From Dudresnaya verticillata (taxonomy: Eukaryota): a stretch of 36,170 nt of DNA. The position numbers and the translations under genes are program-made. Below the pieces are notes generated by a model, which was not told where the DNA came from, searched no databases, and saw only the letters and a list, made by a program, of their open reading frames with translations. Positions 6,546 through 36,170 of this stretch are shown piece after piece (position 1 is the stretch's first letter; every line of letters starts with the position of its first letter). The stretch lies in contig OZ374562.1 in assembly GCA_977862235.1 (NCBI GenBank), positions 2,852,001-2,888,170 of the forward strand, read 5' to 3'.

Positions 6546-6560
6546 CGGCCCCCCCCTCAA
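6546..6560 (-). other. Polypurine tract (PPT)
   Basis: Minus strand TTGAGGGGGGGGCCG directly abuts the TG of the 3' LTR. Confidence 0.9.
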
Positions 6561-6866
6561 GCGTGAGCGCCCCGCTCACGGCCGTTGAGGTTTCCCGGGG
6601 CCACAATGGCAATCCCGAGTGGCCGTTGACAGTGATCGGCACGCGCGCCCGTCGACGGTGTATGCGCGTGCCCGCCCGTCTGCGCCGCTGCGCATATAAG
6701 GATCAACGCGGAGTCGGCGCTGGGGAGGTTGCGGGTATCGCTCTCCACGACCCCCCCTTTCGCCCACACGCTTCAGCACACCAGTGACCGCTATCGTGTG
6801 TGTGTATTGTGCTACGCCTTCTCCTCCCCCCTTCGCTCGACGCGAGCACCCACGTCGACGTGCGGT

Positions 6867-11053: not shown

Positions 11054-11075
11054 CGGCCCCCTCCTCAAGCGCGAG
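11054..11075 (-). other. Second (internal) PPT copy just after the pol stop
   Basis: CGGCCCCCTCCTCAAGCGCGAG matches 6546-6567 CGGCCCCCCCCTCAAGCGTGAG at 20/22 positions. Confidence 0.75.
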
Positions 11076-11091
11076 GCCCCCCGCCGAGGGG

Positions 11092-15654: not shown

Positions 15655-15668
15655 GAGCGGCGTCGCCT

Positions 15669-18072
15669 TTATTCTTTTTCCGGATCGACCTGGTCAGAAT
15701 TATCCTCGGAATCCGAACTTTCGTGCTCGATTCCGATTGGGTGTTTCGTAACCCCTGAGGCGCCTCGCGTCGATCGCGGAGGCGTGTCAAAAAGGAGAGG
15801 GGAATCGTTTCCCTGCCCGCTGGCTGTCTCTCCCTTGTGCCACGCGTCGAGCGCTTGCGGAAGCCACTCGTCGGCGGTGAGGCGTGTGTGCTCCTGCACC
15901 GTCATAACTGCTCGAAGCAGTTCGCGGCGCGGGTCAGCCCTCGGAGGCGTCGATGCCTGAGGGTGACGGCCAGCGGGCTCGTCAAAGCCGACCCGCTTAT
16001 CGCGCAGCAGGAACCGTGGTGCGTCGCCTTGGCGGTACTCGCGGTGTGGGTCTCGACGATCCCCGCGGTACCTTGGTGCGCCCATGCGCTGCGGGGGACC
16101 TCTCGCGTCGAAGCGTCGGTCCCCACCCCGCGGCGCGTCGTAGCACCGTGCGGGGTTCCTTGTCCTTGCGCCCGCTGGCGCGCGCTCGTCGATGAGCTGT
16201 TGAAGCATATTGCGCGAATGCGGCTGCGTTTCCATTCGATGGTTGCAGTTCGCATACGCGCAGTACGTCTGCTGTTCCTTCGTGAGGTACGAGCACGAAT
16301 ACATGATGTGCCCGACCTCGCGGCAGAACCAGCAGATGTACCATCCCTGTCGATCAGGGATGACTGTGCGTGCCATCGCCTCCTGCGTTGGAGTGAGCGG
16401 TGGTATGCGCTTGGGTAGGACCGCGTCGATGCGTCCTGTAATGTCGAGGGTCTCGACGGCCTCGGTCGACCCGGCTGTCGATAGCGCGGGCGCGACCATC
16501 ACGGGTTCGAACCCGTCGGCGTCGGGGTCCACCAGCATTGTGCTGTCGATAGCAACGTCCCCGCTGGGATAGCTTGGTGGGCCCTCGATGAGCAGTGTAC
16601 GGCCGCTTGCCGAGCTGCCACCTGACCTGCCGTGCCCCGAGGTGTTCGTAGGCTGCGCTGCCTTTGCCGAACGGGCGCGGTAGGTTGTGCCCTCGCTATG
16701 GGCAATCCGACGAACGGTACTAAAATTGATCTGTTCGACCATAGGCAGCTTCCTGGCCTTCTCCGCCACTGCGGGTCTTGTCGTGGGCAGCAGGCCCCGA
16801 AGGAACTGATGCGTCAAGTTCTCATCGGAGTACACGCCAGCGCAGGCGTCCGCATACCCTTCGAGGCGAGTAGCGACTCAAGCTCGGACTCGGCGTCCCT
16901 CTGCTTGGCGGTGGTCAGCCGGTCATGGGCGTCTGCGATGACGTCGTCCGTGACGAACCTCTCGACGAGGGTATTGACCACCGAGGCCCAGCAGGGTGGG
17001 GTGCCGCGCTGCGTGGTGCGCACCCCAGAGAACAGGTGACTCGAGTACACCTGCGACGCGGTTCCATCGAGGAACCAGGACACCACACGCGCCGCTGCGC
17101 CTTCGGATAGTCCAACGCCATTGAATGCTTGGCGTAGCTGTCGAAGCACGCCAAGCAGGCAAATCGGCTCCTTGCCGTCGAACCGGTCGAGCCGGGGCAT
17201 CAGGGCCTTCATGCGGCTGACAATCTTCGCAGTATTGCCGCTGCATACCTGCTGTTGATTGTCCCGCTGATCTACGTCATCGAGACGGTACGAGCGGTAG
17301 TCGATCGCCTTAGCGAACTCTGGCACCAACGTGGTTAAAGGCTCGATGCCTGCCATAAGTGGGCCCCAATGCCAATAGGCAGAGACGGGGCCCTCGTGCT
17401 GTTGGGGGGTCGGTCCCCCCTTTGTGTTTTGCCCGTCGAGGGCTTGTTGGAGCAACCTGGGGTCGACCCCGTAGAACGGATTGGGGTCCCCACTCGGATG
17501 GTGCGACCCCGCCGCACTCCTCGGTGGAGATGGCGGTGGTGAAGGAAAGCGATGCCGAGCTCGTTGCTCGGCAAGTATGGCAGCGGCCAATTCTTGAACT
17601 GCACCCGCTGGTGACTGCGGTCGCGGAGGAGAGCGCTGCGCCGACGACGGGCCTGTAGCCCGCTGGCGTTGCCGCGTCGGCGCGAGCTCTATCAACTCAA
17701 TGCGGCGGCGTAGCTCATCGAGGAGCCCCTGTGACCGGGTTATTCCGTCCTCGATGGACGCCAAAGGACCGCGTCGAAGCGTGTCCAGGTCTGCTGGCCG
17801 TCGGCCTTCGCCTCAGCTATCGAAGCCGTAAGGTGGTCGTACACCTCGGCTAGCAAGTCCATGGTCTCCTCATACAGCAGCTGGAGGTCGGCCACCGAGA
17901 CCAGACTCCCGGCGAGGGCCTTTTGCAGCGCGGCCCTCCGCTCGAGCCTCACATCGTGTAGAGGAGTACCTGAGACGCCGATGGTACTCAGTATTGAGGT
18001 GCGACGCGTCGCGTCCTCAACTTTTCCGGCAGCGGCCGATGCGGCAGCGGCCGGGTCAGGAGGACTCGACAT
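15669..18072 (-). pseudogene. gag: gag, split by two frameshifts (about 17760 and 16830)
   Basis: Three overlapping ORFs (17740-18072, 16814-17764, 15669-16835) start just after the PBS. Capsid-like FDGKEPI..W.SVVNTLVERF..QRDAE..QFLRGL; CCHC knuckle CWFCREVGHIMYSC at about 16293-16334. Confidence 0.88.
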
Positions 18073-18120
18073 CCTTTACTTCGATCGCGTCGATGCGAGA
18101 AGTACTTGGGTCTCGACGAC

Positions 18121-18138
18121 TTCTAGGTCGGGAGACCA
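18121..18138 (-). other. Primer binding site, possibly tRNA-Tyr
   Basis: TGGTCTCCCGACCTAGAA lies 1 nt inside the 5' LTR and is complementary to a tRNA ending ...GGUCGGGAGACCA. This resembles the yeast tRNA-Tyr 3' end as recalled; tRNA identity is unverified. Confidence 0.8.
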
Positions 18139-18139
18139 G

Positions 18140-18912
18140 TGTAGTATAGACGTCGGGTCGATCCAACGTCTGATACTTGCTGGTCCGAAGCCGTCACACA
18201 GACCCGTCGATGAGTAGCTGTTGGGGTTGGTAGAGCGGTGTCGGCCGCGTGCGCCCCGCAGGTGCGGATCGACGGCGTCGATGCCGGAGCGCGCACGGGG
18301 CGTACCGTACGCGGGTAGGCAGCGGCCGGATCCCAGCGTTCCTGTCGAAGGACGGCACGAAGCCGACGGAAAGGAAAAGGAAAGGGGAAAGCCTAGCGAG
18401 GCAAGGGAAAAAGGGAAACCACCCGCTGGCGTAAGGCAAAGGGATCGAACCCGAAAAGGCTGGGCGCAAGCTTCAGCGCGAGTTGTTGCTTGCCCGGTTT
18501 ACTGAGCCGTCGATGGCCGACGGTCTTAAATACCCTACACTATGTGCACTACGACTACTTCTACAGTAGGTGCGCCCCACAACACCAACGCGGGAGGTGT
18601 GCGAGCGCGCGCCCATACACGTGTCGATACGTCCGGGTAACGGTTACCCGTGGGCGCGCGCGGGGCGTAACGGGCAGCGGCCCTCTCAACGGCTCGATGC
18701 CGGAGAGCGTCACAGGGGCGCGCCGTGTGCGGCGCGGCGCGCGGCCGCTGCCGGCAGCAATGCGGTCGACCGCTACTAATTCAACGAAAAAACTAAGGGC
18801 ACGCTGCCCAACCACGACTCACCAGCGGGCGTCATCGTGTGCACCATTACAGTGCGGCGCTGCCAGCATACCTTACAGCCGCTGCTGATAGTGTGCTGAC
18901 AGCTATACTACA
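18140..18912 (-). repeat. 5' LTR (773 bp)
   Basis: Direct repeat of 5773-6545; adjacent PBS. Confidence 0.97.
18488..18532 (-). promoter_or_regulatory. LTR core promoter: TATA-like TATTTAAG, initiator-like TCAGT (start about 18503), conserved downstream CCGGGCAAGC
   Basis: 29 nt from the TATA start to the A of TCAGT. Same site in the 3' LTR (6121-6165); diverged equivalents in solo LTRs A and B. Confidence 0.6.
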
Positions 18913-20307
18913 AGTTCTACCGCGAGCTAGGTACGCTACCGCTAACCTATCTCTACTGTCTACCTTTTCCCTTTTCCTCTACCTTTTCCCTTTTCCTTTG
19001 GGTCCCTGCACCCTATCCTTTCCAGGGTGGTCTCCCGCACCGCACCCGGACTGCGCGGGTGGCCTTGCGATCAGGCCTTGCTTGTCCCTCCATCGGAACC
19101 TGTTTTGGTGGATTGTGAGTGCTCCAATCACCCATTGGGATCCGGGAGGCGTAAGGCGTGTACCTGTAATGATGCCCCAGATCCGGATGCGATCTGGATC
19201 GGACATCGGGATCAGGTCGGGATCCACTATAATGTAAGGTGTGCGCTTGAAAGGCACACGAGCGCGCGCCAGCAATGCTGGCAGGGATCGGGATCCGAGC
19301 CCGAATCACCTCTACCGACGTGCGGACGCGCTTCTAAGCTATTCATTACGCGCGCGCACGTCTGTAAGCTACTCCTTACCCGCCGGTGCGCGACTGCATG
19401 GCGACGGTGACTTCTCAGACGCTCGGGGGCGCGACACGCGTCCCGAGTTCCCGCGCGCCACGCCGCGCCGTCGCAGTACGCGTCGTAGCGATAGCATATT
19501 AGGTAACCCGTCTAGGACGTTGAGTAAATCCCGGCAAGCCGGCCTCGGACCTGAAGCCCTTTCGCTCGTGCGTACTTCCCGTTACCAACGATGGCAACTG
19601 CGCAGCTCCGCCCGCGCTTCCGCGTCCACCTACGTCCTTGACGCGTCTCTCTCCCTTTCTCCCCCCTTTCTCCCTCTCTTTCTGTGGCCTTTTTCCAATT
19701 CTACCGCCCAGGGCGTTTACAGTCCGCCCTCGGCGAGTTACCTATGCTCTACCACACCCTCGCTACTAGGGCGCTATCCCGCGTTCGAACTACCCGGAGG
19801 TGCTACTCGTCGCTAGACGGTTTGCACCACACTAGTCGCTTACAGGAAACCCTATATGTAATCCGGGGTTAAGCATGGAGACGAAACGCTCAGACTAATG
19901 ACAAATCAACATTCCGTTAAGGACCGAGTCGCGCAATACGAACTACTGTGAGGGGGTATCGCTATAGGCCAGCATTGGCCGATTCGTTTCGACTCCATGC
20001 CTAATAACGGCCTTCCTGACCCCGTGAGGGCCGACTTCATGCTTAACGGCGAATACACACTGTGAGGCACGGAGCGCACACGGTGCCGTGCTGCTTTCGG
20101 CCAACCAACACAGCAGGCGCAGTGCGCGTGTCGAGCACGCAGTGCTGATATCGATTTGCGTGCGCACGCATGCTGCATCCATGCGGTCCAAAATACGAAA
20201 TACAATATCGAGAGCGGGAAAAGCGCGCTCGCTCGCAAATAAACCTGTAAGCCTACCGGAAAAAAAACTCTGTGGGGAGTGTGTCATTGGGTTGGGCGCA
20301 CACAATG

Positions 20308-20765
20308 CAACGGGGCCCGTGGCACCGTCCCGCATGTACCGTTAGACCGACAACCGTACGAAGCATTCAGCACATTCAGTTCCGTACTTGTAGACATGTA
20401 ATGCGCAACAAGTCCAGGGAAGGAAACAAATGTGGTGAATGCTAACTCTACCACCCGTAGGTGTGCAGTCAGCCAGGTGGCTATACAACGAGTCAGTAAG
20501 GCACCCATTGTCTGGGTATCGAAACACCAGCGACAACGGGGCGCGTGGCACCGGCCCGCATGCACTGTTGGACCGACAACCATACGAAGCATTCAGCACA
20601 TTCAGTTCCTTACTTGTAGACATGCAACATGCAACAGCTCTAGGGAAGGAAACAAGTGTGGTGAATGCTAACTATACCACCCGCAGGTTTGCAGGCAACC
20701 AGGTGTGGGCATACAACGAGTCAGTAAGGCATCCATTGTCTGGGTATCGAAACACCAGCGACAAC
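20308..20765 (+). repeat. 226-bp tandem duplication (2 copies)
   Basis: Units start at CAACGGGG 20308 and 20534, with CAAC microhomology at the junction. Only one unit is present in the terminal copy (about 33875-34103). Confidence 0.92.
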
Positions 20766-21208
20766 ACTGATGAAGGAAGTCCTTTAATAGCAAAGATCGC
20801 GTAGTGAGTGGGAGAATACGTGGACTAATGTCTCGTGCGGTGGAATGCTCCGTATAGCCCGTTTCAACCCTCCCGGCCTCACTTGAAAGTTTTCAATGCA
20901 GGCCGGATAGAAAGAATGCTCCACACAGCGCACTCGAACACACTCCAGCCCTCTCGGCCTAGATTGAAAGTTTGCAATGCAGGCCGGATGGAAAGCATGC
21001 TCCACACAGCCCAATGGGCTTTGCGGCCTAGGTTGCAAGCTTGCAATCGTGGCCGGAGGGTGTGAAGGGGCTGGCACAGGCCCCTTGCGAACTCTATTGA
21101 GCGGGAAATGTAAGTCGTGACGAAGAGATCGTGAAGTGAGGGGGATAATACGTACATTATGCCTCGGATTTTCCCATCCGGCCTCGATTGCAAGTTTGCA
21201 ACCTAGGC

Positions 21209-21271
21209 CGGATATGATCTGCTTCTTTAATTGGATCCGAATGGGATTCAAACAGAAGTAGATCATATCCG
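21209..21271. other. 63-nt inverted repeat/hairpin (second copy at 34553-34615)
   Basis: Outer arms CGGATATGATCTGCTTCT / AGAAGTAGATCATATCCG pair at 17/18. Inner arms TTGGATCC / GGATCCAA are perfect in the terminal copy. Confidence 0.85.
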
Positions 21272-22358
21272 AATTGGATCGCTGTGGATTAGGTTAGTGC
21301 GCACGGCTGCGCCCGACGGCGACGGGAATCGGATGGGGCAGTGAAGCAGGCCAGCTCCGGTGTGACTCTGTCGCGGAAGCTGCGGGGAGTTGTTGAACTG
21401 TGGGCTAGGCTCGGTGTCTCTGGAGAGAGGGGGAGGGGGAGGGGACGACCATCGACTGGAGTGTGGGGTTTAAGTCTGATGGCGTGAGTCTGGCGGCAGT
21501 TTCCAAACGTACCGAAACGCATTGATACGATAGGTGTGAAGAATCACCAGGCATTGGTCGCAAACTGCTATTCGGCACCGTAATTGAAACACTTGTCAGG
21601 AGAGCGAGGTTGCGCAAGATTCCCGCCAGACAGGGATCTCACATACAGGAGGGCAAGCTGGCCCTGTTTCTGTTTCCCGCCAAAATATCGACGGCAGTTG
21701 CGCACAAGTGTGACAGACAGTTGTGAGGCCCATGGCCTCCCCACGATCCAGACAATCACCCCTGACCCTAAGCCGCTCAACTATCGCTTCTTTTTCGACC
21801 CTCGACGTGCCTAACATTTCGATTTGCGACCGCTAACCTCTTTCCTTGACGTTCTGCCCTGCAACGAGCCTTCTTCTATTCCTTTCCGCGCGTCCGACGT
21901 GACCCGAGCAACGCAGAACTATTCCGGCAAGCGCACCGTTGGATCCACTGCATCGTCCAATTGCCCGAGTCGACTTGTAATTGTAATTTTCTGCGTAGGT
22001 ACTGGCAATTGTCGACCTTGTCTCCACGAGAGTTTGAAAACCGGGCACAATTGCAAGCTTACAACAGAGCCCTGGCCATTCCTTGGGGACGAACACAGTT
22101 GTTAGCTTGCAAAAGAGCCCGTTTTGAACTCTAAGGAGAAGCGGATATTCTTTGTGAACTTGTGAGGCAACCGGCTTCGATTGAAAATTTGTAACCGAGG
22201 CCGACGGCCCCAAGAAAGGAGGCTGTTGGACTTGAGCGGCAGAGTAGAACCGAATCCGAGGACCCGGCTTCGATTGCAAGCTTGCAATAGAGGCCGACCG
22301 GCAGAAGTACACGGAAACCGAGTACGAACATTGCATCCGCAATTCTTTGCCTTTCCAG

Positions 22359-25300
22359 ATGACTCCATCGGAAGCTGAGTCCGTTTCTGAACTTAAAAAG
22401 GCGGAAGAAGGACTGTCGGAAAGTGGGGTTGTAATCATACCTGAGATCTCACATCCATTTTGCCGCAGGTCCAGGTCTGGGATACACCTTGGGAAAGAGC
22501 AATTAGAAAACTTTCGCAATCATATTCGGAGATGCGAAAAGCCTGCCGAGGGGAAGAAAAATCGAGGTCTCTTCACTTCCCTGCAGAAAGTGAAGGCCTC
22601 CGTTGTACCGAGCTGCACCGAGACGGAACGTGAGCATTACTTTTCCACCGTGAAAAATGATGAATGCAGAGGAAGAGTACGGTCACTGTCATTTCTCCCT
22701 GTGGTTGAGGTGTACCCGTGTCGCGTATGCCACCATAGCAGCCCTACGATACGGGGTCTCTACCAGCATTGCCGCTAGAAGCACGTGCAAGCGATGGAGA
22801 ACGTTACCTTGTCCGATCTTCGAAAAGAAGTACGACCGGAAAAGGCTCAGAAACTATTCAAAAAAGGTGGACAGTACTTCTTGGTACGAGAAGACGGTGA
22901 TGAAGGGAGTAGATCTACATCCGACGTGGCCAACAGTGTTGCCCAAGGAATCATCCACTGTCTTAAAGATGTTGAGGAGGAGAGAAAAGTTTCCGTTCTT
23001 TCGCAGGAGCCGCGTTTGAGTGCCATGGGAAACTTTGCATGTGACACACGGGCGGATTTGAAACTGAAAGAGCTTGGTATCAGCATTCAGAAGGCTGCGG
23101 AAATGAGTGCCAAGGCACACAAAAGCCGCTCAGTCTTCCGCATACCCGAGACGAAAGTTCTCAAGTGGTTCAATGACACCCTGATGAAGATTTGCAGAAC
23201 TGCTCGTGCTGCGGGCACAAGGCCAAACATGGGATCGACCAGGATACTTCTCGCCGTGCGGGCCCCCCTGGCATGGACTGCGATAGGAAGAAGGAGTTCC
23301 GATGGGTCCTTGATGAAAGTGAACAAAGGTACAGGAGGGAGATGTCCGAGGTACTGGTAATGACTCTCCGTTTGTGTCAGGAGACGGCACTAATCACCTC
23401 CCAAGAGATTGTAGACGCCGCAAAGGAAGTTGTCCGGAAGGTGGAAGCATCGCGCACCGAACGACCGCGCACGGCCTCGATTGAAAGTTTGCAATCGAGG
23501 CCGGGCACCAAATGGGATCACATGCGGGCTGTACATCGGTTGCTCGAAGCCATTCTGTACGAGAAGAGTAGCGTACAATCCGGGAGTATAACAGCAGCAA
23601 GTGTTATTTGTGGTTGCTTGGGAGTGCGACTGACAGAGAGAGGAGTCGCTCTGTCGCGAGGTGTAGAAGTTTCCCCCACACTTTCTGCAGTGGCATACAT
23701 TGCGGGCTGCTGCGCGATTCTCTCCATCGTGCACTGGCCATCTTCTGGGGATTCCGACGAGGAGGTTGAGAGATTTCGGAAAGATCACAGGTCTGGAGGC
23801 AACCTCGGTATCCATGTGTTGCAAGAACTGGCGGCAAAAACTCGCAAGCATAGAAGCTCAGAGAGTTCGCGGTGTACATGGACGGTGTGTGATGATCCGA
23901 GGCACAAGGAGGAACACTGTGGGTTTGTGCTTGGGATCCATATCAGCGCGAAGCGCATTGGAAGGTGTGTGAGACGTATGCAACGGAGGATATTGGGGCT
24001 CATAACAACGAACGAGGGCTTCATGAACGGGGTTGATCTTCCAGAAGACTTTCAGGAGAGACTCTCCGTCGTCATCGAGAATCCGAAGGAGACCAAGTCA
24101 CCGTACATTTTTTTCGAAGACGAGGGAAATCGAGATGTTGTGATAGACTGCCGTGCGTGTGTGAGACGAGCGATAGGTCAACTCGGAATTCTTCCAGCTC
24201 GAGAGGCGCACAAGAGAGCTGTGAGTATGCTATCCCTTATACAGGAGTCTGTGGAGCTAGTTTGTGCATGCATCCATCTGTCTGGGGGAAATGTTGCTCG
24301 CGGATCGGAGGTGGGATTCATGGCAACCAGGAACAATGGGAGTGGCCCGAGGGGGTTCCAACTTCACGGTGGGGCCAGATTGACTTGCATACCGAGTCAC
24401 AGCAAGACCAGGTCGCAGAAGGAAGGTATGATGAAGTTCACGAGCAAGAATCCCGATGTGGTGTCCAGTAACTTGTACAAGGCCATGGTTCTTCTTGGGG
24501 TAGAGTTGCGAGTAGCACTCATGAAATACCTCGGCAGGAGCGTCAAAAAGGACAGTTACGATTACCTTCTTCCAACTGTCCCGATGAGGAATGACGCTCT
24601 AAAGGTCATGGCAAGCCAGTGGAATCGGTATGGGCTTCCACAAGGATACAACGGGGAGAAGCACCGGCAATGGTTTGGCGGTTACAGTATTGACAAGTCA
24701 CAGACAAATCGGGAAGTACTATTTGCACTGAAGAGAGGTGTAGAATGTTATGAGGAGGAAGAGTCCAACGTAGGTCACACGTTGGAGCTGCAAGGTGGGC
24801 ACAGCAGGAAAATTGCTGAGCAGCACTATGGAAAGTGCGTCTCGACCATTGGTAGCGAGGGCGTGGTCGACGACCGCAGTATGAAGTTGTTCCTGGCGGC
24901 CACGAATGACTGGCATAGTGACTGCGGGTTGGTCGGCCACGACGATTGGGACACTTTTGAGTCTGTAGCTGAAGATGAAGCTCCAGTGTTCGAGAAGAAG
25001 AACAAACAGAGGAAGCGCCGAGTTGGGAATAATTGTACAGAAAAGGTGCCAAGAAAGGCGAAGAAGATGAGGAGAAGCCGTGCCGCGAAAGTCCCTGCCC
25101 CGGTTGAGAACGAGCAACCGAAGGCAACGAAGAGACGAGAATCAGCCGACTTATCTCTTTTTCGGCCAGTGCCCGAACACATTCGAACAACCACGGCGAT
25201 GGCGGTCGCTAAGGTTGCAGGTGTGGGGCCGAGGCCGGATGTATGCATGGAGATAGAGAATACAAGGCATACATCGACTCTAGCGGAGGAACCGATGGTG

Positions 25301-28023
25301 CCGGCTGAGATTGCAAGGTTGCAATCGAGGCCGAACGGTGGAAAAGAGGTGGAAAAAAAGGCTTGTTTGACCTCGGTGGAGAATCCGAGTCTAGAGGAGG
25401 AAGTGATGGTGGCGGCCGAGGTTGCAAGCTGCGAAAAAGAGGTGGAAAAGCAGACTTGTTTGACCTCGGTGGAGAATCCGAGCCTAGCGGAGGAAGCGAT
25501 AGTGCCGGCCCAGATTGCAAGCTTGCAATCGAAGCCGAAGGGGGGAAAAGAGGTAGGTGAACAGGCTTGTTTGACCTTTCAGCGGTTGCTGTACGGAAGG
25601 AGGTCAATTCGGGAAATGGACATTTTCGAAAGGTTGCATTTGTGGGCAATGGATCGAATGGAGACGGAGGACTGTGCTCCGAGTGGCGAAGCAGATGAAA
25701 ATGGTAGTGGAACAGCCGCCGACATGGTTGAAAATGTACATCCGAGGTCGGACAAACAGGCAGCTATGGCGCCCACGGAGGAGCCAGGTACTTCAATGGA
25801 TCCAGTGGTTCCGAACAGTGTTGCAAGTGTGGAAGAGGGACCGGCCGTGGGAGTGGAGGCGAAAGAACAGAAGGGCATGGCGCCTTTGACCTCGCCAAGT
25901 AGTCCACGGGAACCCAGCCGTGGCGAATCCCTTGGTACGAACAATGCGGACCCATCGTCCGGAAGTGGCGTGAGTGGGGAACGAATGTATGAAGTCACAG
26001 GTAGTGCCGAAGATCAAGACGAGTTGATGAGCATTGGAAGTCCAGGGAGCACAGCAAATGAGGAAGATTTCGATGCAGAGGACGAGATCGGATTCCCGTT
26101 CCAGCGAGATGTTGACGTAGAAGAACACCTCCGAAGGGTGCTGAGGACAACAGAAGCGCAGTTTCGAAGTCCGGAACAGCGAAGAGCGATGGAGGTTGTT
26201 GCTGAGGGTGTTGTGGACGCCTTGATCGTGTTGAGGACGGGAGGTGGCAAGACAGCCGTTATATTTGGACCCTGCACCAACGAGGCAGGCGTGACAGTGT
26301 TCATTTAGCCATTGAAATCCCTCTCTAAAGAGATTGAGAAGAGGTGCCGGGAAGCTGAGCTCGTCTTTCACACGCTGAATGATCTCCGAGACCGAGAGAC
26401 GGGATCATCTTTGGAACGCGGCATTTTGCTTGTGCAGCCTGAAGCTGTAAATTCCAAGAAATACGTGGAAGTTGTCGGGAAATTGTACGCAAGAAGGTTG
26501 CTCTGCCGATTTGTGGTGGATGAAGCGCATATGATTATACAGTCTGCGCACTACCGGTCTTGTATGACGGCAATGAGGCTTGTGCGCCCAGATGGCATAC
26601 GCGCACAGACTGTCCTGATGACGGCGACGGCACCGCTGTGTCTCGAGGATTCCATTATTGCAGCGAATGGATGCGACCCTTGCAAGACAGTTGTTGTGCG
26701 AGGTTTTCTGAGAAGAGACAACGTGTCAATCGTAGTGAATAATCTCGAGAATATGGAAGAGTTTGAAATTCGAAACGTATTGAAAGAATCCGTTGCCGCG
26801 GCGATTCGTGAGATCAGGGCCAAGGGTGGTGGAAAGTGCCTAGTATCTGTTCTCACGCGAAGCGATGCAGACGAGTGCAGCAGTCTGATCCGCAGGGCGC
26901 ATATAAAGGAAGCAGACGTGACGGTGAGGTGTTATCACAGTGGTATGAGGGATATACAGAGGGAGGGAAATGCCGACACGTGGTGTCAGACGGGTGCCTC
27001 TAATGGGAAGATATTTGTGATGGTTGCAACGGATGGGTTCGGTACCGGAATAGATGCACCCGATGTGCGCCGTGTGATTATCTTTGGCTGCACGAGGACC
27101 ATGCTGGACATGGCACAGATAGCGGGACGTGTGGGCCGAGATGGGTCGCGTGGCGTCGTCACGGTGCTATTCCATCCTTCCTTTCGTGATCGTGCAAATG
27201 TATCGGAGAGCAGTGCAATCCCACTTCTAGATGACGTGATTCGATGGATCACAGACACTAGGTCGTGCCGGAAACTGGCACTGGAAAGATATCTTGGGTG
27301 TCCTGCTGGAACGGAGGAGTGCTGGGAGCGCAGAGGAGACGACTCACAAAGCACATCCATGTGCGATGTATGCGAGAATATGTTGCTGGGAGGAGCCGAA
27401 GCGGAATCTGATTCGAACTGCCGTACGACCAACCCAGTACAGAATATTCGCTGTCACGCCCCTCCGCCACCTCGAAACGTTGTAACTGTAATCAAAACGG
27501 AAGAGGTTAAACGGAGCGTGGAATGTCTCCGCGCACTTGTTTCCCGAATGGAGAGCATATGCCCACCATGCGTTGGCAACAGCAGGGGGGCACGTACAGT
27601 CACAATATTCATTGTTACAGCGGGAGGTGTCTCCGATGTCTTGGCTCTGGGCACGACGCATATCAGTGCCCAGTCAGACCGATAGCCAGGAGGGGTACCA
27701 AGGTGACAGGATGCACCGAATGTTCGATAAGAACGTTTGGAGGCGAGCGGGTGCACCACGGAAACGGCACACGGCGTGGCGGGACGAATGAATACAGCAA
27801 TCGGGCGTTGTGTCCCTTCTGGAAGCCCGTAGTAGCCTCGTTTGCCTGTTGGAGAAATCCTGTCCTGAAACGGCGGATGTTATCAGAGTTGATGGATAAG
27901 GGCTTAAGTGGGAACTTTTCCGATAATGAATTCTCCAAATGGCTTTTGAACGATCGCGTTCTAAAACCGCCAGGCATTCTCTTACAAGTTGCGCACACGC
28001 GATTAAGGTTTACAGGTGTTTAG
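22359..28023 (+). pseudogene. Telomere-linked RecQ helicase with N-terminal C2H2 finger and tyrosine-recombinase-like domain (~1,890 codons; 2 in-frame TAG, 2 frameshifts)
   Basis: C2H2 CRVC-x12-H-CR*K-H (TAG at 22776); -1 shift inferred in the C6 run 23263-23268; YR-like ARGSE, SKT, HRQ, GGHSRKIAEQHY; helicase Q motif FRSPEQ, I TGGGKT, Ia VFI*PLKSL (TAG at 26306), II DEAH, III TATAP, V ATDGFGTGID, VI QIAGRVGRDG; RQC-type CRK..C..CDVC; -1 shift inferred in the G6 run 27585-27590; C-terminal CLRCLGSGHDAYQC knuckle. Start is uncertain (TTTCCAG before the ATG may be a splice acceptor). Confidence 0.9.
25205..25575 (+). repeat. Coding tandem repeat (93-111 bp units) in the linker between recombinase-like and helicase domains
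   Basis: Repeated LAEE.MVPAEIARLQSRP..GKEVEK.ACLTSVENPS peptides; each unit carries one copy or half of the 34-bp palindrome. Confidence 0.85.
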
Positions 28024-28032
28024 GGGTTTAGG
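28019..28032 (+). repeat. Short interstitial telomere repeat overlapping the helicase stop codon
   Basis: TTTAGGGGTTTAGG; the TAG at 28021-28023 ends the ORF. Similar seeds at 28144-28167 and 29387-29399. Confidence 0.6.
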
Positions 28033-29570
28033 ATATGAGGGTTGCACGCGTGCGCGAGGCGAATCGGCTTGCGCTTCTACTGGTAATAAAAACGTGAGGC
28101 TGAGGGAGTGTGGTGGGATGGAGGCTGACAGTGCTAGGAGGTGGGTTAGGGTTAGGTGTAGGGTTAGTTTGGATGGCTTGGTACGCGAGGGGTATGACAT
28201 TAGTGGTGTAAATGGTGTAGAGTTAGTGCATGGAATGCATCATGGTGGTAGAAGGAATGGATCCATGTGGTGGATGAATTGGATTGAGGGAGTTGGATAC
28301 ATAGTATAGGAATAGATTTAGCAACGGGATGATGGGATGGAGGAGCAGGGAAAGCCTTGAGGGGACTAAGTCTGGTGCTGTGTGCTGTGTAAGGGTGGCC
28401 TGGCGAGTTGCGGGCATAACAGTGGCTGTCTGCGGTTGGTTTAGTTGTCTAGTACGAGGGGTCGTACTGTTAGGGTTTAGTGTAGTGTTCGTGCATGCAA
28501 TGCACCTTGCTGGCGGATGGAATGGATCAATGCGAGCTAGGGTTGGATCAACGGGCTCTATAGATTGGATTCAGTGCTGGTTTGATTGAATCAAGGAGTC
28601 AGAACGTCCGTGCGCTGGTTGACTGTGTATATATTAAGTACCATGCTTATATTAAATTCTATAAGGTTCTGGGTCATTAATTTAATCGTCCCACGTGTAT
28701 AGCATGCCCTCATGAGGTACTGGGGAAATTTACAGTGGCAGGGGTGCAGCAGCGCCTTTACAGCGCCTGGTAGTTGTGAACAATCGCCCTGGTTGGTGTA
28801 CACACGAAGGCTTCAAAAAATACGTGATTTCTAGGTGAAGGAGGCCTCTAAAATTGATTTGGAGCCTAATTCGACATCACTGGACCAAATGGCGGCTTCC
28901 TATTGGATCCCATGTATAGCTAGTACGCAGGCGGACGCATGCAAACCTGCGTAAACACATGCGCCAGGGCATGTCAGGCGGGCGAACGTACCATTGGCCA
29001 GAAAATAATCTTGGAAAAATTAAGCGCGCACTGCGTTTGGCGCTGTGTAAGTTACGGAAAAGGATGCAAGTAAATTTTTCCGGATGAAAGGACGATCAGG
29101 GCAAGCAATATTATTGGACGGACGCATGCATCACATGTAAGTTTTGCTGCCGCATGTCTGCGCGTGTCATGCGCGTGCCAGACGCGTGCCCAGGCTGTAT
29201 TACCGGTGCGTTTTCCGCACCTTTCGTCACTGTAGGCTAGTACGGTGGTGGATATTGTGAAGTCTACGCATGTGGGGGGTCCTATTTTCGCCTGTTCGTT
29301 GCTTAGGCGTTTTTGGGTTATCATATGTAATGGTTTGTGCGGGGTTTTGATGCGGTGATGGGCGTTTGTTGTGGTGGGGGTTTGTGTTTAGGGGTTAGGA
29401 GGGTTATCGTGGGGGTGTTTAGGAGTATTATTGAGGTTTATGGGCAGGTTTTGTTGTTTGGGTGTTTTCTGATGTGTGCTTAGGGAGTCATTGTAGGCGC
29501 TTCTAGGGGTTTTGGTAAAGATTTGTGGGTTGTTGACTTGGGTGGCGGTTAGGTGGCATGCGATAGGGAA

Positions 29571-30395
29571 TGAAATGCGTACGGCGTACGCATTCGGTGT
29601 GGCGAGAGATATGATCAGGACTGGAATGCGTACGGCGTACGCATTCCGTATGCAAAGGAATAAAGCTGGGGCTGAAAGGCGTACGCCGTACGGATCTGGG
29701 CGACTGTACGGTTTGCGCGCGGTGTGTGGTGTAATAAAGCCTGGAAGCAGTTTAAACGGCATATAATATTTGCGGGAGGCTTTTGTATTTTGTATCACGG
29801 TTTTGGCGCGCGCGGACTGAAATGCGTACGGCGTACGCATTCGGTATGGCGAGGAGTATGACAAGGAATGAAATGCGTACGGCGTAGGCATTCGGTGTAG
29901 CGAGGGATGTGATCAAGAATGAAGTGCGTACGGCGTACGCATTCGGTGTGGCGAGAGATATGATCAGGACTGAAATGCGTACGGCGTACGCATTCGGTGT
30001 GGCGAGAGATATGATCAGGAATGAAATGCGTACGGCGTAGGCATTCGGTGTGGCGAGAGATATGATCAGGACTGGAATGCGTACGGCGTACGCATTCCGT
30101 ACGGAAAGGAATAAAGCTGCGGTTGAAAGGCGTACGGCGTACGGAACTGGGCGACTGTACGGTTTGCGCGCGTTGTGTGGTGTAATAACGCCTGGTAGCA
30201 GTTTATAGGCCGTATAATATTTGCGGGAGGCTTTTGTATTTTGTATCACGGTTTTGGCGAGCGCGGACTGAAATGCGTACGGCGTACGCATTCGGTATGG
30301 AGAGGAGTATGATAAGATCTGAAATGTGTACGGCCTACGGATTCCATGTTGACAGTAATGTGATGAGGGCTAGAATGACTGCTGCGTACGGATTT
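29571..30395. repeat. 51-bp tandem array with palindromic core AATGCGTACG-G-CGTACGCATT and 451-bp higher-order period
   Basis: Units start at 29571, 29622, 29673, 29818, 29869, 29920, 29971, 30022, 30073, 30124, 30269 and 30320, with a degenerate unit near 30371. The block starting at 29571 recurs at 30022. Confidence 0.95.
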
Positions 30396-30726
30396 GGGAC
30401 TAGTGGAGTAGTGTATGCAGCGTTGTTGTAAGGCAGAGATGAATTTGATTCCTGCTGTGGGGAAGGGTGTAAGTGATGTACGGGTTTTGGTGGCTGTTGT
30501 GTAGTTTTGGCGGGAAAAGAATTGCGCGGGAGAGCTTTAGCAGTCTGCGTGTCTGAGATATATGTGTTGTTCGACTATTGCGGTGGATTGTGTATTGGTG
30601 TGTTTGAATCGCAGTGCTTTTGAAGATGAGTCCAGTGTCTTTGCATGGTTGTCGCAGCTTTAGGAGTGGAATCGATATATAGATGAAAGTACGGAACGCG
30701 GAAACGGTGTAGGTTTTATTTCATTG

Positions 30727-31880
30727 CTAGGTAGCGGGCGTTTGGTTTTTAAGAGGAGGTGTTCCCATGATCGTGGTGTAGAGCCACGGGAGGATGTAGC
30801 AGATACCGGGTTCTTTGAAGTCGTAGAGGCCCCGGCGCCAATATGTGAAGGAAAGAGTGTTGTTGAGCGAAGCGAGATCCGGGAAGGAGGAGAGCATTGA
30901 TTTTTTGAGATGATCCAACTCCCATGCATTTATAGCCATGGACATGACTGCTTTCCAGTAACAATGTCGCTTGCCGAATGTTCCGGCGTCATGGAGGCGT
31001 TGCCCTTGGAAGTTGCCCAGCGAGCAGGAGTAGCATCTGCTTCCAGCTTGTGCTTTGAAGGATGTGCATTTGGAAGCGATATGGTCATTGGACGCGCATC
31101 GGAGACATTTTCCATTGTAACACTCTCTTGTTGCAGTGGCCTTGGAATCTTCATGCTTGACGGGGGTTTGGCGATGAATGGAGCAAACCGGGCAGAAGGA
31201 GGAGAGTTTCTGAGCGATTTCGATGATGTCAGAGAGTGGTGGGTGTGAAGAGGGGTTGGCAGGTAGGGGTGGTTCCTGCTGGACAACGGATTGGGTGACA
31301 GGGGGTGGAGTGTTGTTGGCAGGAAGGATGTTGCTGGGAGCGTTGAAGTGTGCCGGTGCGGGTGTGCAAGCTTGTGTTCGGATGCACGTGGCGCAAGGAA
31401 CCATATTTCGTTGATGGCAGGACTGGGACTGTTGCAATCCATCAGCGAAGGAGTCGAGAGCGAAGGCATATGGTGTTGTTTTGGAGGAATTCATGGAGTT
31501 GCCGCATGTGTTCTTCTTGAAGATCGTAGTGGTCTCCTGGCTCGCGCTGAGTACGCCACAAGTGGTCTGTGGTGTGGAAGACGACGGACTCGGCTGGCTT
31601 GAAGTCGCGGCCGGCCCTTCCACTCTGTTGAATGAAGGCGAGGAGGTTTGTGGGCATTCCGGCGTGTAGAACTGCTCGGACGGTTGGGATGTCAATACCG
31701 CATCCAAAGCCGCAGGTGGCGATCATGATGGCTGTTGTGCGCGGGCGGGACCATTGCTTCTGTGCGGTCTTGCGGTCTTCATCGGTGCGATCGGAATGAT
31801 AGAGGAAGGCGTTGAGGTCGGGGTAGAGAATCTTGATAAAGTTGTGGAAGTCCTCGGATAATTGCTTTGTGCTGAAGGTG
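30727..31880 (-). pseudogene. Decayed second RecQ paralog (helicase-C, RQC-type Zn and Cys/His-rich tail), convergent with the first
   Basis: YHS, IATCGFGCGIDIPTVR, QQSGRAGRD, then a frameshift near 31460 into LDSFADG..C..CATC and CPVC..CYNGKCLRCASNDHIASKC..CYSC..H..C.W, co-linear with the + gene tail. No motif I or DEAH recognisable upstream. Confidence 0.88.
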
Positions 31881-31976
31881 TTTGCCAGGGTCGGGTGGTA
31901 CGGAGGGGAAGGGGAGCAGGCAAGATGTGTGGCAGGGGTGGAAGAGGGTGGGGATAGGGAAGGGATGAGTGATCTC

Positions 31977-32003
31977 TGTGTGTGTGTTTGTGTGTGTGTG
32001 TGT
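31977..32003 (+). repeat. (TG)n microsatellite
   Basis: Near-perfect TG run with one interruption. Confidence 0.8.
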
Positions 32004-33419
32004 GGTTGCGGGGTTGCGGGACGGGGAGGGGGTGAGTGATCTGAGGGACGAAAGGGGCGTGTGCGGTATAGGGGATCGGAAGGAAACGAGATGTCAGGGG
32101 GGGTTGTGTGGATGGGGGGTATAGTATTGTGATGAGGGTGTGTGCGCGTATAGGGGGGTATGGGTATGGGTGTTGTGTATTGTGATCGGTATAGTTTGGC
32201 GCGAAAAAGCGGAAGAATGGAATTGCGCGGGAATACTGCGGAAAATATGCATATGACCAAAAATGTTTAATTAACTGTAAGGAAGAGTTGGGTGGAAAGA
32301 GGCTTTCGGCGCGTGGGAGGGAAGGTGCGTGGGTCTTCGACAAGGCCGAGTGAAGTAGTACCTTAAATGCAGAGGCGGTTGTGGGGAAGGAGGGTTACGG
32401 GAAGCCGGCGGGGGAAGGGGAACGGGAAGGAAGGGGGAAAGGGGTTTAAAATTTTGTAAGATGTAGAAATTGGTTAGGGGTGCGCCGGTGGATGGGTGCT
32501 CGAGATTCATTCTCCTGAGAAATTATGAGAAATTATAATAATAAAATAGGGATGGCATACGAAAGGTGGGAGGAGGAGAGCGGGCGTGCAATTTTGTTGC
32601 GCTGGAAGTCAAAACGCGGCGTGCTTGCGTGCAACGGATTTCTGTCGCTGTGCAGGCTTTAGGAGCTACTGTTGCGGTATTGTGACGCGAGCAAGAGCAT
32701 TGTGACGCTGCCTGTGAAGCTGTGCTGTGAGATGAGCGGAGGAGAACCGGCAGCCGAAGGCTGCAGGGTTGGGCACAAGAATCGGTGTGTTGGTAGGATG
32801 CCGGGCGGGGAGGCATCGGTATCGTTGGGCAAAATGGTGTCTGTTTGGCGTTTCCATGGAGGGAAGGGAAAGTTTGGAAATGTGGACGGGCGAGGGAGTG
32901 TGCGGATGGAGAGCGAGGAGCGGAAGGGGAGTGAGTCTTGTATGGTGTGGGATGACATGGAAAGGGTGAACTTGGTGTGGGATGCGATGTGTGGGGAGAG
33001 GAGGGGATGGTGGCGGGGGCAGGGAAGAGGCGTGGTTCAGGAGAGGGTGCAGCTAATTGGAGAGGAGATGGATCGTGTGGAGAGGTGTGGGTGGGAGTTA
33101 CCTGCGTGGCTTTGCAAGAGCCCTGGATATGTGACGCTGTTTCTGCGCTGCGTGCTGTACGATGTGTACGTGCGTTGGAGCAATGTTGGGGAGAGTGTTG
33201 GGGACGGGTATTCGTTGTCAGTTGGGTCACAGCTGGAGGTGCGGCGGGAGAGTAATGTGAAAATTAGAAGGAGTGTGGACGAGGTGTGTCGGAGGATGAA
33301 GAGTGTTTTTCTGGAGGGTCGAAAAGCGATGAGGGAAGGGGTTGAGGAAGAGTTGGAGGGAGGCGTTGGAGAGGAGAACTGCGGTGAGAAAGAGGGTGGA
33401 GAAGATGAACTATTGGGCT

Positions 33420-34756
33420 CTATATGTAATCCGGGGTTAAGCATGGAGACGAAACGCCCAGATTAATGACAAATCAACATTCCGTTAAGGACCGAGTCGC
33501 GCAATACGAACTACTGTGAGGGGGTATCGCTATAGGCCAGCATTGGCCGATTCGTTTCGACTCCATGCTTAATAACGGCCTTCCTGACCCCGTGAGAGCC
33601 GACTTCATGCTTAACGGCGAATACACACTGTGAACCACGGAGCGCACACGGTGCCGTGCTGCTTTCGGCCAACCAACACAGCAGGCGCAGTGCACGTGTC
33701 GAGCACGCAGTGCTGGTATCGATTTGCGTGCGCGCGCATGCTGCATCCATGCGGTTCAAAATACGAAATACAAAATCGAGAGCGGAAAAAGCGCGCGCGC
33801 TCGCAAATAAACCTGTAAGCCTACCGGAAACAAACTCTGTGGGGAGTGTGTCATTGGGTTGGGCGCACACAATGCAACGGGGCGCATGGCACCGGCCCGC
33901 ATGCACTGTTAGACCGACAACCATACGAAGCATTCAGCACATTCAGTTCCTTACTTGTAGACATGCAATGTGCAACAGCTCCAGGGAAGGAAACAAGTGT
34001 GGTGAATGCTAACTCTACCACCCGCAGGTTTGCAGGCAACCAGGTGTGGCTATACGAGTCAGTAAGGCACCCATTGTCTTGGTATCGAAATACCAGCGAC
34101 AACACTGATGAAGGAAGTCCTTTACTAGCAAAGATCGTGTAGTGAGCGGGAGAATACGTGGACTAATGTCTACGTATTATCCCAATTACTGAACGTGACC
34201 GGATGGAAAGAATGCTCCATACAGCCTGTTTCAACCCTCCCGGCCTCAATTGAAAGTTGGCAATGCAGGCCGGATAGAAACAATGCTCCACAAAGCGCAC
34301 TCGAACGCACTCCAACCCTCTTGGCCTCGATTGAAAGTTTGCAATGCAGGCCGGATGGAAAGCATGCTCCACACAGCCCAATGGGCCTTGCAGCCTAGGG
34401 TGCAAGCTTGCAATCGTGGCCAGGCCCCTTGCGAACTCTATTGAGTGGGAAATGTAAGTCATGACGAAGAGATCGCGAAGTGAGGGGGATAATACGTACA
34501 TCATGCCTCGGATTTTCCCATCCGGCCTCGATTGCAAGTTTGCAACCTAGGCCGGATATGATCTGCTTCTTTAATTGGATCCGAATGGGATCCAAACAGA
34601 AGTAGATCATATCCGAATCGGATCGCTGTGGATTAGGTTAGTGCGCACGGCTGCGCCCGACGGCGACGTTGGCAATCGGATGGGGCAGGAAAGCAGGCCA
34701 GCTCCGGTGTGACTCTGGCGGGGAAGCTGCGGGGAGGTGTTGAACTTTGGGCTAGG
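33420..34756 (+). repeat. Telomere-associated direct repeat, terminal truncated copy
   Basis: Matches 19852-21409. Contains 34-bp palindromes at 34240, 34321, 34390 and 34522, and runs directly into the telomere. Confidence 0.95.
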
Positions 34757-36170
34757 GGTTTTAGGGGTTTAGGGGTTTAGGGGTTTAGGGGTTTAGGGGT
34801 TTTAGGGGTTTTAGGGGTTAGGGGTTTAGGGGTTTAGGGGTTTTAGGGGTTTAGGGGTTTTAGGGGTTTTAGGGGTTTAGGGGTTTAGGGGTTTAGGGGT
34901 TTTAGGGGTTTAGGGCTTTAGGGGTTTAGGGGTTTAGGGGTTTAGGGGTTTTAGGGGTTTAGGGGTTTAGGGGTTTAGGGGTTTTAGGGGTTTAGGGGTT
35001 TAGGGGTTTAGGGGTTTTTAGGGGTTTAGGGGTTTAGGGGTTTAGGGGTTTAGGGGTTTAGGGGTTTAGGGGTTTAGGGGTTTAGGGGTTTAGGGTTTAG
35101 GGGTTTTAGGGGTTTAGGGGTTTAGGGGTTTAGGGGTTTAGGGGTTTAGGGGTTTTAGGGGTTTTAGGGGTTTAGGGGTTTAGGGGTTTAGGGGTTTTAG
35201 GGGTTTAGGGGTTTAGGGGTTTAGGGGTTTAGGGGTTTAGGGGTTTTAGGGGTTTTAGGGGTTTAGGGGTTTAGGGGTTTAGGGGTTTAGGGGTTTAGGG
35301 GTTTTAGGGGTTTAGGGGTTTTAGGGGTTTAGGGTTTTAGGGGTTTTAGGGGTTTAGGGGTTTTAGGGGTTTAGGAGTTTAGGGGTTTAGGGGTTTAGGG
35401 GTTTAGGGGTTTAGGGGTTTAGGGGTTTAGGGGTTTAGGGGTTTTAGGGGTTTTAGGGGTTTAGGGGTTTAGGGGTTTAGGGGTTTAGGGGTTTAGGGGT
35501 TTAGGGGTTTAGGGGTTTAGGGGTTTAGGGGTTTAGGGGTTTAGGGGTTTAGGGGTTTTAGGGGTTTAGGGGTTTAGGGGTTTAGGGGTTTAGGGGTTTA
35601 GGGGTTTAGGGGTTTAGGGGTTTAGGGGTTTAGGGGTTTAGGGGTTTAGGGGTTTAGGGGTTTAGGGGTTTAGGGGTTTAGGGGTTTAGGGGTTTAGGGG
35701 TTTAGGGGTTTAGGGGTTTAGGGGTTTAGGGGTTTAGGGGTTTAGGGGTTTAGGGGTTTAGGGGTTTAGGGGTTTAGGGGTTTAGGGGTTTAGGGGTTTA
35801 GGGGTTTAGGGGTTTAGGGGTTTAGGGGTTTAGGGGTTTAGGGGTTTAGGGGTTTAGGGGTTTAGGGGTTTAGGGGTTTAGGGGTTTAGGGGTTTAGGGG
35901 TTTAGGGGTTTAGGGGTTTAGGGGTTTAGGGGTTTTAGGGGTTTAGGGGTTTAGGGGTTTAGGGGTTTAGGGGTTTAGGGGTTTAGGGGTTTAGGGGTTT
36001 AGGGGTTTAGGGGTTTAGGGGTTTAGGGGTTTAGGGGTTTAGGGGTTTAGGGGTTTAGGGGTTTAGGGGTTTAGGGGTTTAGGGGTTTAGGGGTTTTAGG
36101 GGTTTAGGGGTTTAGGGGTTTAGGGGTTTAGGGGTTTAGGGGTTTTAGGGGTTTAGGGGTTTAGGGGTTT
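34753..36170 (+). repeat. Telomere, (TTTAGGGG)n with TTTTAGGGG and rarer variants
   Basis: About 1.4 kb of G-rich 8-mer array running to the end of the window, G strand 5'->3' outward. Confidence 0.99.

Follow-up and report, generated by a model that had tools for sequence, protein, structure and literature searches.

What is repeated at a helicase-encoding chromosome end of Dudresnaya verticillata, and how did the repeat arise? In the window (the whole 36,170-nucleotide stretch of contig OZ374562.1 that was analysed), an earlier note had described a Y'-like subtelomeric unit of ~13.6 kb, either tandemly repeated or bounded by direct repeats of ~1.5 kb. The features needed to answer the question, in window positions, are the following.

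19165-19844, no strand: LTR-like segment ("LTR B"), TGTAA...TTACA
19852-21409, plus: left repeat copy, non-coding and probably the 5' leader of telomere-linked helicase (TLH) element 1 (from alignment and palindrome scan)
21410-22358, plus: remainder of the leader up to gene 1, with three P1 palindromes (22041, 22171, 22264)
22359-28023, plus: TLH gene 1, complete in length but disrupted (profile positions 5-1507 of 1523 over 22401-27990)
23492-24964, plus: modelled recombinase-like region; R 24299, K 24404, R 24665, H 24800 and Y 24827 all kept
28018-28032, plus: interstitial telomere tract, 15 nt, perfect, supplying the stop codon of gene 1
29574-30343, no strand: array of a second palindrome family, P2; 12 copies of 21-23 bp, with a tandem unit of 51 bp, located 3' of gene 2
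30727-31870, minus: remnant of TLH gene 2, reduced to the C-terminal half of the helicase plus the zinc knuckle (profile positions 1132-1514 of 1523)
31900-33419, no strand: G/A-rich DNA, GC skew 0.3-0.8, ending in an abrupt composition change
33398-33419, plus: site X0, matching the right copy's end at 18 of 22 bases and 13 of the last 14, TTGGGCT exactly
33420-34756, plus: right leader copy, one 226-bp unit, ending at TAGG
34753-36170, plus: telomere array of about 174 units, (TTTAGGGG)n including TTTTAGGGG variants

A repeat, probably a leader, at the chromosome end

Re-alignment reproduced the claimed coordinates and start offset exactly: 19852-21409 (1,558 bp) aligns with 33420-34756 (1,337 bp), the offset between them falling from 13,568 where they begin to 13,347 where they finish. 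BLAST returned the pair as two blocks (94.5% identity over 688 columns and 89.0% over 908; E = 0), while global alignment gave 95.7% identity, with 56 mismatches in 1,305 aligned columns and nine gaps. Compared with the left copy, which carries two 226-bp tandem units at 20308-20765, the gaps in the right copy include the loss of one such unit, a 23-bp deletion and ~30 inserted bp; the two copies are further apart than the LTRs of the neighbouring Gypsy element (98.2%, no gaps). Both start at the same base (CTATATG) within unrelated flanks. The left copy follows the LTR-like segment (70% inverted similarity to 4416-4627 by BLAST) after the 7-bp spacer GGAAACC. This spacing is as described earlier; a search around the segment for a 4-7-bp target-site duplication found none, so it is a putative solo LTR. 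No TLH coding signal was found in the left copy, and no Rfam family matched anywhere in 19000-34800.

The right copy does run into the telomere, as had been proposed: its last bases, GGGCTAGG, pass without a break into the ~1.4-kb array, in which TTTAGGGG accounts for 141 of the 173 counted units. The TAGG at the end of the copy is shared with the telomere register, a coincidence with a chance of ~8/256 by simple arithmetic. The equivalent site X in the left copy is internal, and after GGGCTAGG the leader there goes on with the same palindromes. At its start, the right copy is preceded by a sharp break in composition (GC-skew change point at 33418, interval 33401-33458), and X0 together with the copy's end forms an imperfect 13/14-bp direct repeat bracketing it—the best X0-like match among 34,650 positions once the left copy's own site is set aside. 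The right copy has TTGGGCT without a mismatch on each side, and the left copy has GTGGGCT, so that the lone mismatch shifts toward X0. An open reading frame at 32732-33466 spans this junction; it was rejected as a gene, with no match in Pfam or PHROGs and nothing convincing in the Atlas, and was treated as a product of the G/A-rich DNA.

TLH genes and the patchwork between the copies

Gene 1 encodes, in order, a putative C2H2 zinc finger, a predicted tyrosine-recombinase domain, a linker, a RecQ helicase and a C-terminal zinc knuckle, and it ends 6.7 kb before the telomere array with its 3' end toward the telomere. Its Helicase_C match has an E-value of 2.7e-16, the helicase motifs are present and of RecQ type, and the best PDB matches of the family profile are RECQ5, BLM, RECQ1 and RecQ. 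The second C2H2 motif (Cx2Cx12Hx4H) is present but interrupted by a stop, and the first is degenerate; the published set has two. The reading frame is broken by in-frame TAG codons at 22776 (the stop in the C2H2 motif) and 26306 and by frame changes near 23230 and 27580, the two stops comparing with 4.8 expected under neutrality since the copies split. We counted 79 relatives with the conserved domain upstream of the helicase, with fungal clusters at 0.96 in the Atlas; the relatives match OrsD/C2H2 weakly. The domain shares motifs with P0009, to which BLAST gives only E 0.047. Viral contigs yielded no locus with a relative, and prokaryote genomes none among 73 candidates.

The 13.6 kb between the two leader starts is a patchwork rather than one element. 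After gene 1 come the telomere tract at 28018 (a 14-nt tract was reached in 0 of 1,000 local shuffles of 19852-33419), the P2 palindromes and, in inverted orientation, what is left of a TLH gene from another lineage, so that the 13.6-kb unit of the earlier note finds no support as a coherent whole. This remnant, gene 2, lacks its 5' part, points away from the telomere, is broken near 31455 and, at the amino-acid level, is 36% and 32% identical to gene 1; two starred branches part it from gene 1 in a tree of 189 columns, in which its own branch is long. No TLH coding remnants were found in 28030-30720, 31880-33419, either leader or 2300-5700, and tblastx sum E-values apart from the helicase pair proved to be artefacts. 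The G/A-rich DNA was also tried, and rejected, as an old leader copy (score 25-29 versus a null mean of 26 and maximum of 35). What survives of the earlier description is that the repeat is subtelomeric and bears a helicase, and that the telomere truncates its terminal copy.

A predicted tyrosine recombinase and two palindrome families

On fold and catalytic residues, the middle domain of gene 1 is predicted to be a tyrosine recombinase, in line with the recombinase that the earlier note had invoked. An AlphaFold model built from 57 sequences reached a pLDDT of 87.6 (33 for the single-sequence model), and the top 13 of 48,161 chains compared by VIA-align were tyrosine recombinases or topoisomerases IB. 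XerA led (Z 8.9, rmsd 3.6, 170 aligned), followed by XerA (8.6), Brujita integrase (8.1), XerH (8.1), IntI (7.7) and Cre (7.4). The R, K, R, H and Y residues are conserved in 54/55, 55/55, 48/53, 50/50 and 49/50 alignment rows, respectively; the H of HxxR is not conserved. In a viral library, the best named match was an integrase (E 0.016). Weighing against this support, the best Z is only 8.9, Foldseek against the PDB gave no match at E<=0.001, and Pfam and PHROGs searches found no integrase family. Our search, which covered literature outside subscription, found no paper linking TLH genes with a recombinase in the parts available, and none on red-algal TLH genes.

The P1 palindrome has 14 copies, all within 20873-25538 and 34240-34555: besides those in the leader remainder, there are four in the left copy (20873, 20954, 21023, 21178), four in the right copy (34240, 34321, 34390, 34522) and three in the reading frame of gene 1 (23471, 25301, 25505). 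They differ by at most 8 mismatches, compared with at least 12 for the best match in 30 shuffles, and the exact pattern occurred in no stretch of the metagenome and viral contigs searched. Because P1 carries on past 21409 into the gene, the repeat is tied to gene 1, and 21409 is no boundary on the left. Reading P1 as a lox-like 13+8+13 site was rejected, the central 8 bp being no more variable than the arms. P2 is not present in gene 1 or its leader.

Among 29 related loci, 7 have recurring palindromes of their own by a strict test and 11 by a relaxed one (shuffles gave at most 2 copies). Their layout is that of this locus, with motifs that differ from P1: sites are found upstream, within the recombinase part and in the linker, and the arrays are leaders. 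The other 18, among them all of L001-L008, L018 and L026 (mostly short gene fragments), have no palindrome family; locus L016 has arrays on both sides of its gene, 3' as well, with the two blocks inverted. In M. oryzae, a repeat array that stops 181 bp short of the TLH start contains a 23-bp palindrome (PMC1635262). In Plavaka (PAG3 repeats in red algae) and in VANDAL self-binding, arrays of element-specific inverted repeats are proposed to be bound by the protein of the element itself (bioRxiv 2025.02.11.637652); for P1 and P2 this is an analogy only, and the transposon class (DDE) and the protein there differ. Most tentatively of all our readings, the palindromes of each family may be putative binding sites for its own protein, through zinc fingers or a recombinase dimer.

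Known systems and the possible origin of the two repeat copies

The locus is like S. cerevisiae Y' elements in being subtelomeric, helicase-encoding, directly repeated and adjoining the telomere. Y' elements form tandem arrays and circles, their units are near-identical, coherent 5-7-kb blocks with telomere tracts between them, and we know of no recombinase encoded by them. Here, in contrast, only 1.3 of 13.6 kb is repeated, at 95.7% identity with nine gaps, and the junction has no tract. A closer model is the fungal TLH-containing region, known from F. oxysporum (TLHcr), M. oryzae (helicase-associated repeats), S. pombe (tlh1/2) and a choanoflagellate: TLH genes combine a C2H2 finger and a conserved middle domain, whose counterparts here are putative, with a RecQ helicase in ~1,900 codons pointing to the telomere. 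Their regions share with this locus tandem repeats that lie upstream and include a palindrome, as well as broken paralogues, a truncated terminal copy and an interstitial telomere tract. Unlike these, the locus has two divergent TLH lineages tail to tail and leader starts without a telomere tract, and its telomere repeat, TTTAGGGG, departs from that typical of filamentous fungi, the source being probably a red alga. TLHcr units are near-identical blocks present at most chromosome ends and carry telomere repeats on both sides, whereas here a tract follows gene 1 and none occurs at 19851 or 33419. The domain left without a given function in the available parts of the published TLH accounts is here a predicted tyrosine recombinase, and the palindromes here also enter the coding region. 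Cryptons and Starships share with the locus a tyrosine-recombinase domain with R-K-R-H-Y (predicted here) and a possible short direct repeat at insertion; unlike theirs, the recombinase here is mid-protein and fused to a RecQ helicase. Tyrosine-recombinase transposons have definite ends, flanked by a short direct repeat, and leave as a circle. The locus has the shared left end and the exact 7-bp bracket around the right copy, with none around the left; for a full element, neither a right end nor a matching repeat on the two flanks was found.

Our preferred reading, to which we assign a probability of about 0.5, is that the repeat copies are the 5' leaders of two diverged element copies, the second having joined at an older chromosome end and then been truncated by telomere addition. 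CTATATG would be the natural left end of the element, as the shared start within unrelated flanks suggests. Elements of the family may pile up at chromosome ends, whether through the recombinase that they would encode or by ectopic recombination; telomerase would heal breaks at short TAGG seeds, and the 13.6 kb between the starts would be the debris of successive arrivals. F. oxysporum has terminal arrays of TLH regions, which can be complete or truncated and reach 13.1 kb (bioRxiv 2024.02.27.582403). Some observations sit poorly with such stacking: Fusarium units have tracts on both sides (bioRxiv 2024.02.27.582403), whereas these leader starts have none; 18 of 29 related loci are without a palindrome family, and the L016 array is also 3' of its gene; and stacking leaves unaccounted for the match of the 14 bases in front of the right copy to that copy's own end, at 1 of 34,650 positions.

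That match would be accounted for, together with the copy's start and end, by a single event if the 1.33-kb leader had moved alone as a circle and inserted between old subtelomere and telomere, by the element's recombinase or by microhomology, with crossover inside TTGGGCT, a core of 7 bp; tyrosine recombinases usually work with an overlap of 6-8 bp. The bracket of TGAACTATTGGGCT and TGAACT-TTGGGCT, and the mismatch that goes toward X0, speak for this possibility. We hold it doubtful, however: GGAAACC, not X, precedes the left copy, where X is internal, the core has no inverted binding arms, and the match was noticed after the fact in G-rich DNA. Such hint of a circle as the sequence gives would point to the 1.33-kb leader, not to 13.6 kb. 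The whole 13.4-13.6 kb could nevertheless be a Y'-like unit that is duplicated en bloc, either through unequal exchange or when a circle integrates into a leader already in place. The copies are direct and the terminal one is cut by the telomere, a recombinase is predicted to be encoded, composite subtelomeric blocks can be co-amplified, the stop count of gene 1 is compatible with an old duplication, and the F. oxysporum regions, of up to 13.1 kb, form arrays (bioRxiv 2024.02.27.582403). An interior of two oppositely oriented families with a telomere tract mid-way, copies differing by 4.3% and nine gaps, and a tract-free unit junction make this rather unlikely; moreover, gene 1 cannot drive unit copying now because it is broken.

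Two further readings seem far less probable. A single element with natural direct terminal repeats of ~1.5 kb and the interior as cargo, the other form that the earlier note had allowed, would fit the common start base in unrelated flanks and the L016 arrays on both sides of the gene. It is very improbable given that the palindromes pass 21409 into the gene, the arrays of related loci are leaders, the right end coincides with the telomere and the L016 blocks are inverted; long direct repeats around the gene were found in 0 of 8 longer related loci, a weak test with flanks of 0.6-8 kb. An assembly artefact joining two chromosome ends or haplotypes at 33419/33420 would agree with the sharp junction there, but we give it little credence: the two copies fall short of near-identity, the long telomere array contains natural variants, and a misjoin should show no bias towards a 13/14-bp bracket.

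The tandem-with-truncation layout that our preferred, stacked reading describes is ordinary for TLH regions. A bolder proposal, which we regard as unlikely, is that TLH "genes" encode the transposases of a hitherto unrecognised class of tyrosine-recombinase DNA elements that would target chromosome ends, tag themselves with family palindromes bound by their own protein and move via circles. The locus would then be an integration scar, left when a non-autonomous 1.33-kb circle of leader DNA entered the junction between subtelomere and telomere by crossing over at TTGGGCT, the 7-bp core. In the available parts of the published accounts, TLH genes have so far been read as host telomere-repair helicases, with a conserved middle domain to which no function is assigned. 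The predicted recombinase fold and its catalytic residues, the discrete left ends, the stacked divergent families and the lineage-specific palindromes argue instead for TLH genes as selfish chromosome-end elements. The locus offers substrates on which this can be tested: the left end CTATATG, the candidate crossover site X, and the candidate binding sites P1 and P2.

A broken telomere-linked helicase gene and its middle domain

The window, which ends in a telomere array, holds the following features:

22359-28023, plus strand: gene 1, a broken telomere-linked helicase (TLH) gene, interrupted by stop codons at 22776 and 26306 and by frame changes near 23230 and 27580
31870-30727, inverted: gene 2, the last quarter only of a second TLH gene, sharing 36% and 32% identity with gene 1
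5773-18912, minus strand: Gypsy LTR retrotransposon of 13.1 kb, with 773-bp LTRs (98.2% identical, no gaps) and target-site duplication AGTTC
11593-14511: reverse transcriptase, RNase H and integrase of the Gypsy element

Among 1.84 billion proteins, 79 relatives of the first half of gene 1 were found at E ≤ 0.001; DEAD and Helicase_C domains were present in 14 of the 15 relatives scanned, and an OrsD match—mostly weak—in eight. A profile of 35 long relatives was covered on the window from position 5 to 1507 of 1523, and its best PDB matches were RecQ helicases. By its domain order, gene 1 appears to have the layout published for telomere-linked helicases, namely C2H2 fingers, TLH domain and RecQ (accessible text of bioRxiv 2024.02.27.582403).

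The middle domain is predicted to be a tyrosine recombinase. Its structural model, derived from a 57-row alignment (pLDDT 87.6, pTM 0.84), gave no Foldseek match in the PDB at E ≤ 0.001; upon alignment to 48,161 chains, the top 13 rows were tyrosine recombinases and topoisomerases IB, with matches including XerA (Z 8.9, rmsd 3.6 over 170 residues), Brujita integrase (8.1), XerH (8.1) and Cre (7.4). Since Z values under 8 are common, what carries weight is that a single superfamily fills these top rows. The residues R, K, R, H and Y are kept in recombinase order in 54/55, 55/55, 48/53, 50/50 and 49/50 alignment rows, and gene 1 has all five; its protein had no integrase match in Pfam or PHROGs. 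Our literature search, which covered openly accessible papers and bioRxiv main texts, found no report of the TLH domain as a recombinase or of TLH genes in red algae, and the accessible portions of PMC9940879, PMC12477816, PMC7074392 and PMC10799480 do not make the TLH-recombinase link.

The repeat copies and the P1 palindrome

Alignment places the repeat where the earlier note had put it, with the left copy (19852-21409) recurring as the right copy (33420-34756) at 56 mismatches in 1,305 aligned columns (95.7% identity) and nine gaps—values which, against those of the Gypsy LTRs, make the copies the older pair. A 226-bp tandem unit occurs twice in the left copy and once in the right, and neither coding signal nor Rfam match was detected in the repeat. 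The right copy does end in telomere, its final bases GGGCTAGG being followed by an array of ~174 units, most of them TTTAGGGG; past this point the left copy reads CTCGG. Bostrychia telomeres are given as TTTTTAGGGG in the accessible text of bioRxiv 2025.02.11.637652; taken with the gag motif of the Gypsy element, this points to a red alga as the likely source. GC skew falls from ~0.6 to 0 at 33418 (interval 33401-33458), which argues that the right copy begins at a true junction. The left copy shares this starting base; its reported 7-bp spacing from a solo LTR stands, the segment itself being LTR-like and lacking a target-site duplication. From this shared start, CTATATG would be the element's natural left end.

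P1, a 34-bp palindrome, has 14 copies in the window: each repeat copy holds four, three more follow the left copy ahead of the start codon, and gene 1 has one in its N-terminal region and two in its linker, with none in 1-20800 or 25540-34200; nothing came within 11 mismatches in 30 shuffles. Because P1 spans the repeat copies, the upstream stretch and gene 1, we read the repeat as the 5' leader of gene 1's family. P1 also continues past the left copy into gene 1, so 21409 is no boundary on that side—and the ~1.5-kb direct terminal repeats offered earlier become highly improbable. The P1 copies at 23471, 25301 and 25505 lie in frame and encode similar peptides (ASIESLQSRP-like), so coding sequence can accommodate the DNA motif.

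P1 follows a general pattern: among 29 related metagenome loci, seven carry a recurring palindrome of their own in a strict test and 11 in a relaxed one, located upstream, within the recombinase part and in the linker; L014 is contained within L016, and ~7 motif families cover the 11 loci. No palindrome family was found in the other 18, among them every locus from L001 to L008 as well as L018 and L026, mostly short fragments of genes. L016 has the array downstream of its gene as well, in inverted orientation; its blocks (387-562 and 8090-9115) flank the gene in a manner resembling subterminal inverted repeats. In M. oryzae, the accessible text of PMC1635262 describes a 23-bp palindrome within an array whose end lies 181 bp upstream of the TLH start. 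A protein of the element may bind such palindromes.

The interval between the copies and the neighbouring DNA

The DNA between the copies is a mosaic. At 28018, a perfect telomere tract of 15 nt provides the stop of gene 1 (14 nt was reached in 0 of 1000 local shuffles). A second palindrome, P2, has 12 copies at 29574-30343 and is absent from gene 1 and leader; gene 2 is separated from gene 1 by two starred branches (tree of 32 rows, 189 columns), and 31900-33419 is G/A-rich. Degenerate telomere-like motifs (TTAGGG, TTAGGGG) lie on the G-rich strand at 28144-28168, 29387-29399 and 32474. At locus L025 (10946-11047) a TLH gene is directed at a TTAGGG telomere ~4 kb downstream, with a G/A-rich tail resembling 31900-33419; L001 carries a second, decayed recombinase-domain fragment (6775-7327) downstream of its TLH gene, echoing the stacked remnants here.

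On the proximal side, the LTR-like segments 4195-4884 and 19165-19844 are related and inverted (70% over 223 bp) and have no target-site duplication; the pair suggests that LTRs recombined with each other at the subtelomere's proximal edge. The Gypsy element, whose gag motif resembles those of red-algal elements, holds ~5 kb of extra GC-rich DNA with opposite-strand ORFs (7499-8467, 8717-9769) that match nothing in Pfam or PHROGs. The same holds for a 474-aa ORF at 876-2300, probably the last host gene of this arm.

Proposed assembly of the chromosome end

The 14 bases preceding the right copy equal its last bases with one edit (those of the left copy with two), a match unequalled elsewhere among 34,650 positions (21380-21415 excluded; match noticed after the fact). 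TTGGGCT is exact on either side of the right copy. Such a bracket would be left if a circular 1.33-kb leader had crossed into the junction between an old subtelomere and its telomere, and could alternatively reflect target preference or a break hotspot. No such site precedes the left copy, and we regard leader-circle insertion as unlikely. Y' elements form arrays and circles, and a whole ~13.6-kb Y'-like unit in tandem, as the earlier note proposed, seems to us similarly doubtful; misassembly would be a very remote explanation of the locus.

With the anatomy and junctions as observed, we assign a probability of roughly 0.5 to a pile-up of TLH elements at chromosome ends, comprising a decayed element 1, debris of another lineage and a truncated second family-1 copy. 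Under this pile-up, element 1 would have arrived and decayed, a telomere would once have been added at the stop of gene 1, debris of another TLH lineage would have been appended, and a second family-1 copy would have joined at 33420, cut at TAGG ~950 bp short of its expected gene start. A tandem-with-truncation layout is already known from fungal TLH regions: in the accessible texts, F. oxysporum arrays consist of full or truncated units of 6.1-13.1 kb each (bioRxiv 2024.02.27.582403), and terminal truncation is frequent in M. oryzae TLH (PMC1635262). The order of arrivals proposed for this chromosome end would involve healing by telomerase, and TLH elements may accumulate at chromosome ends through recombinase-driven movement.
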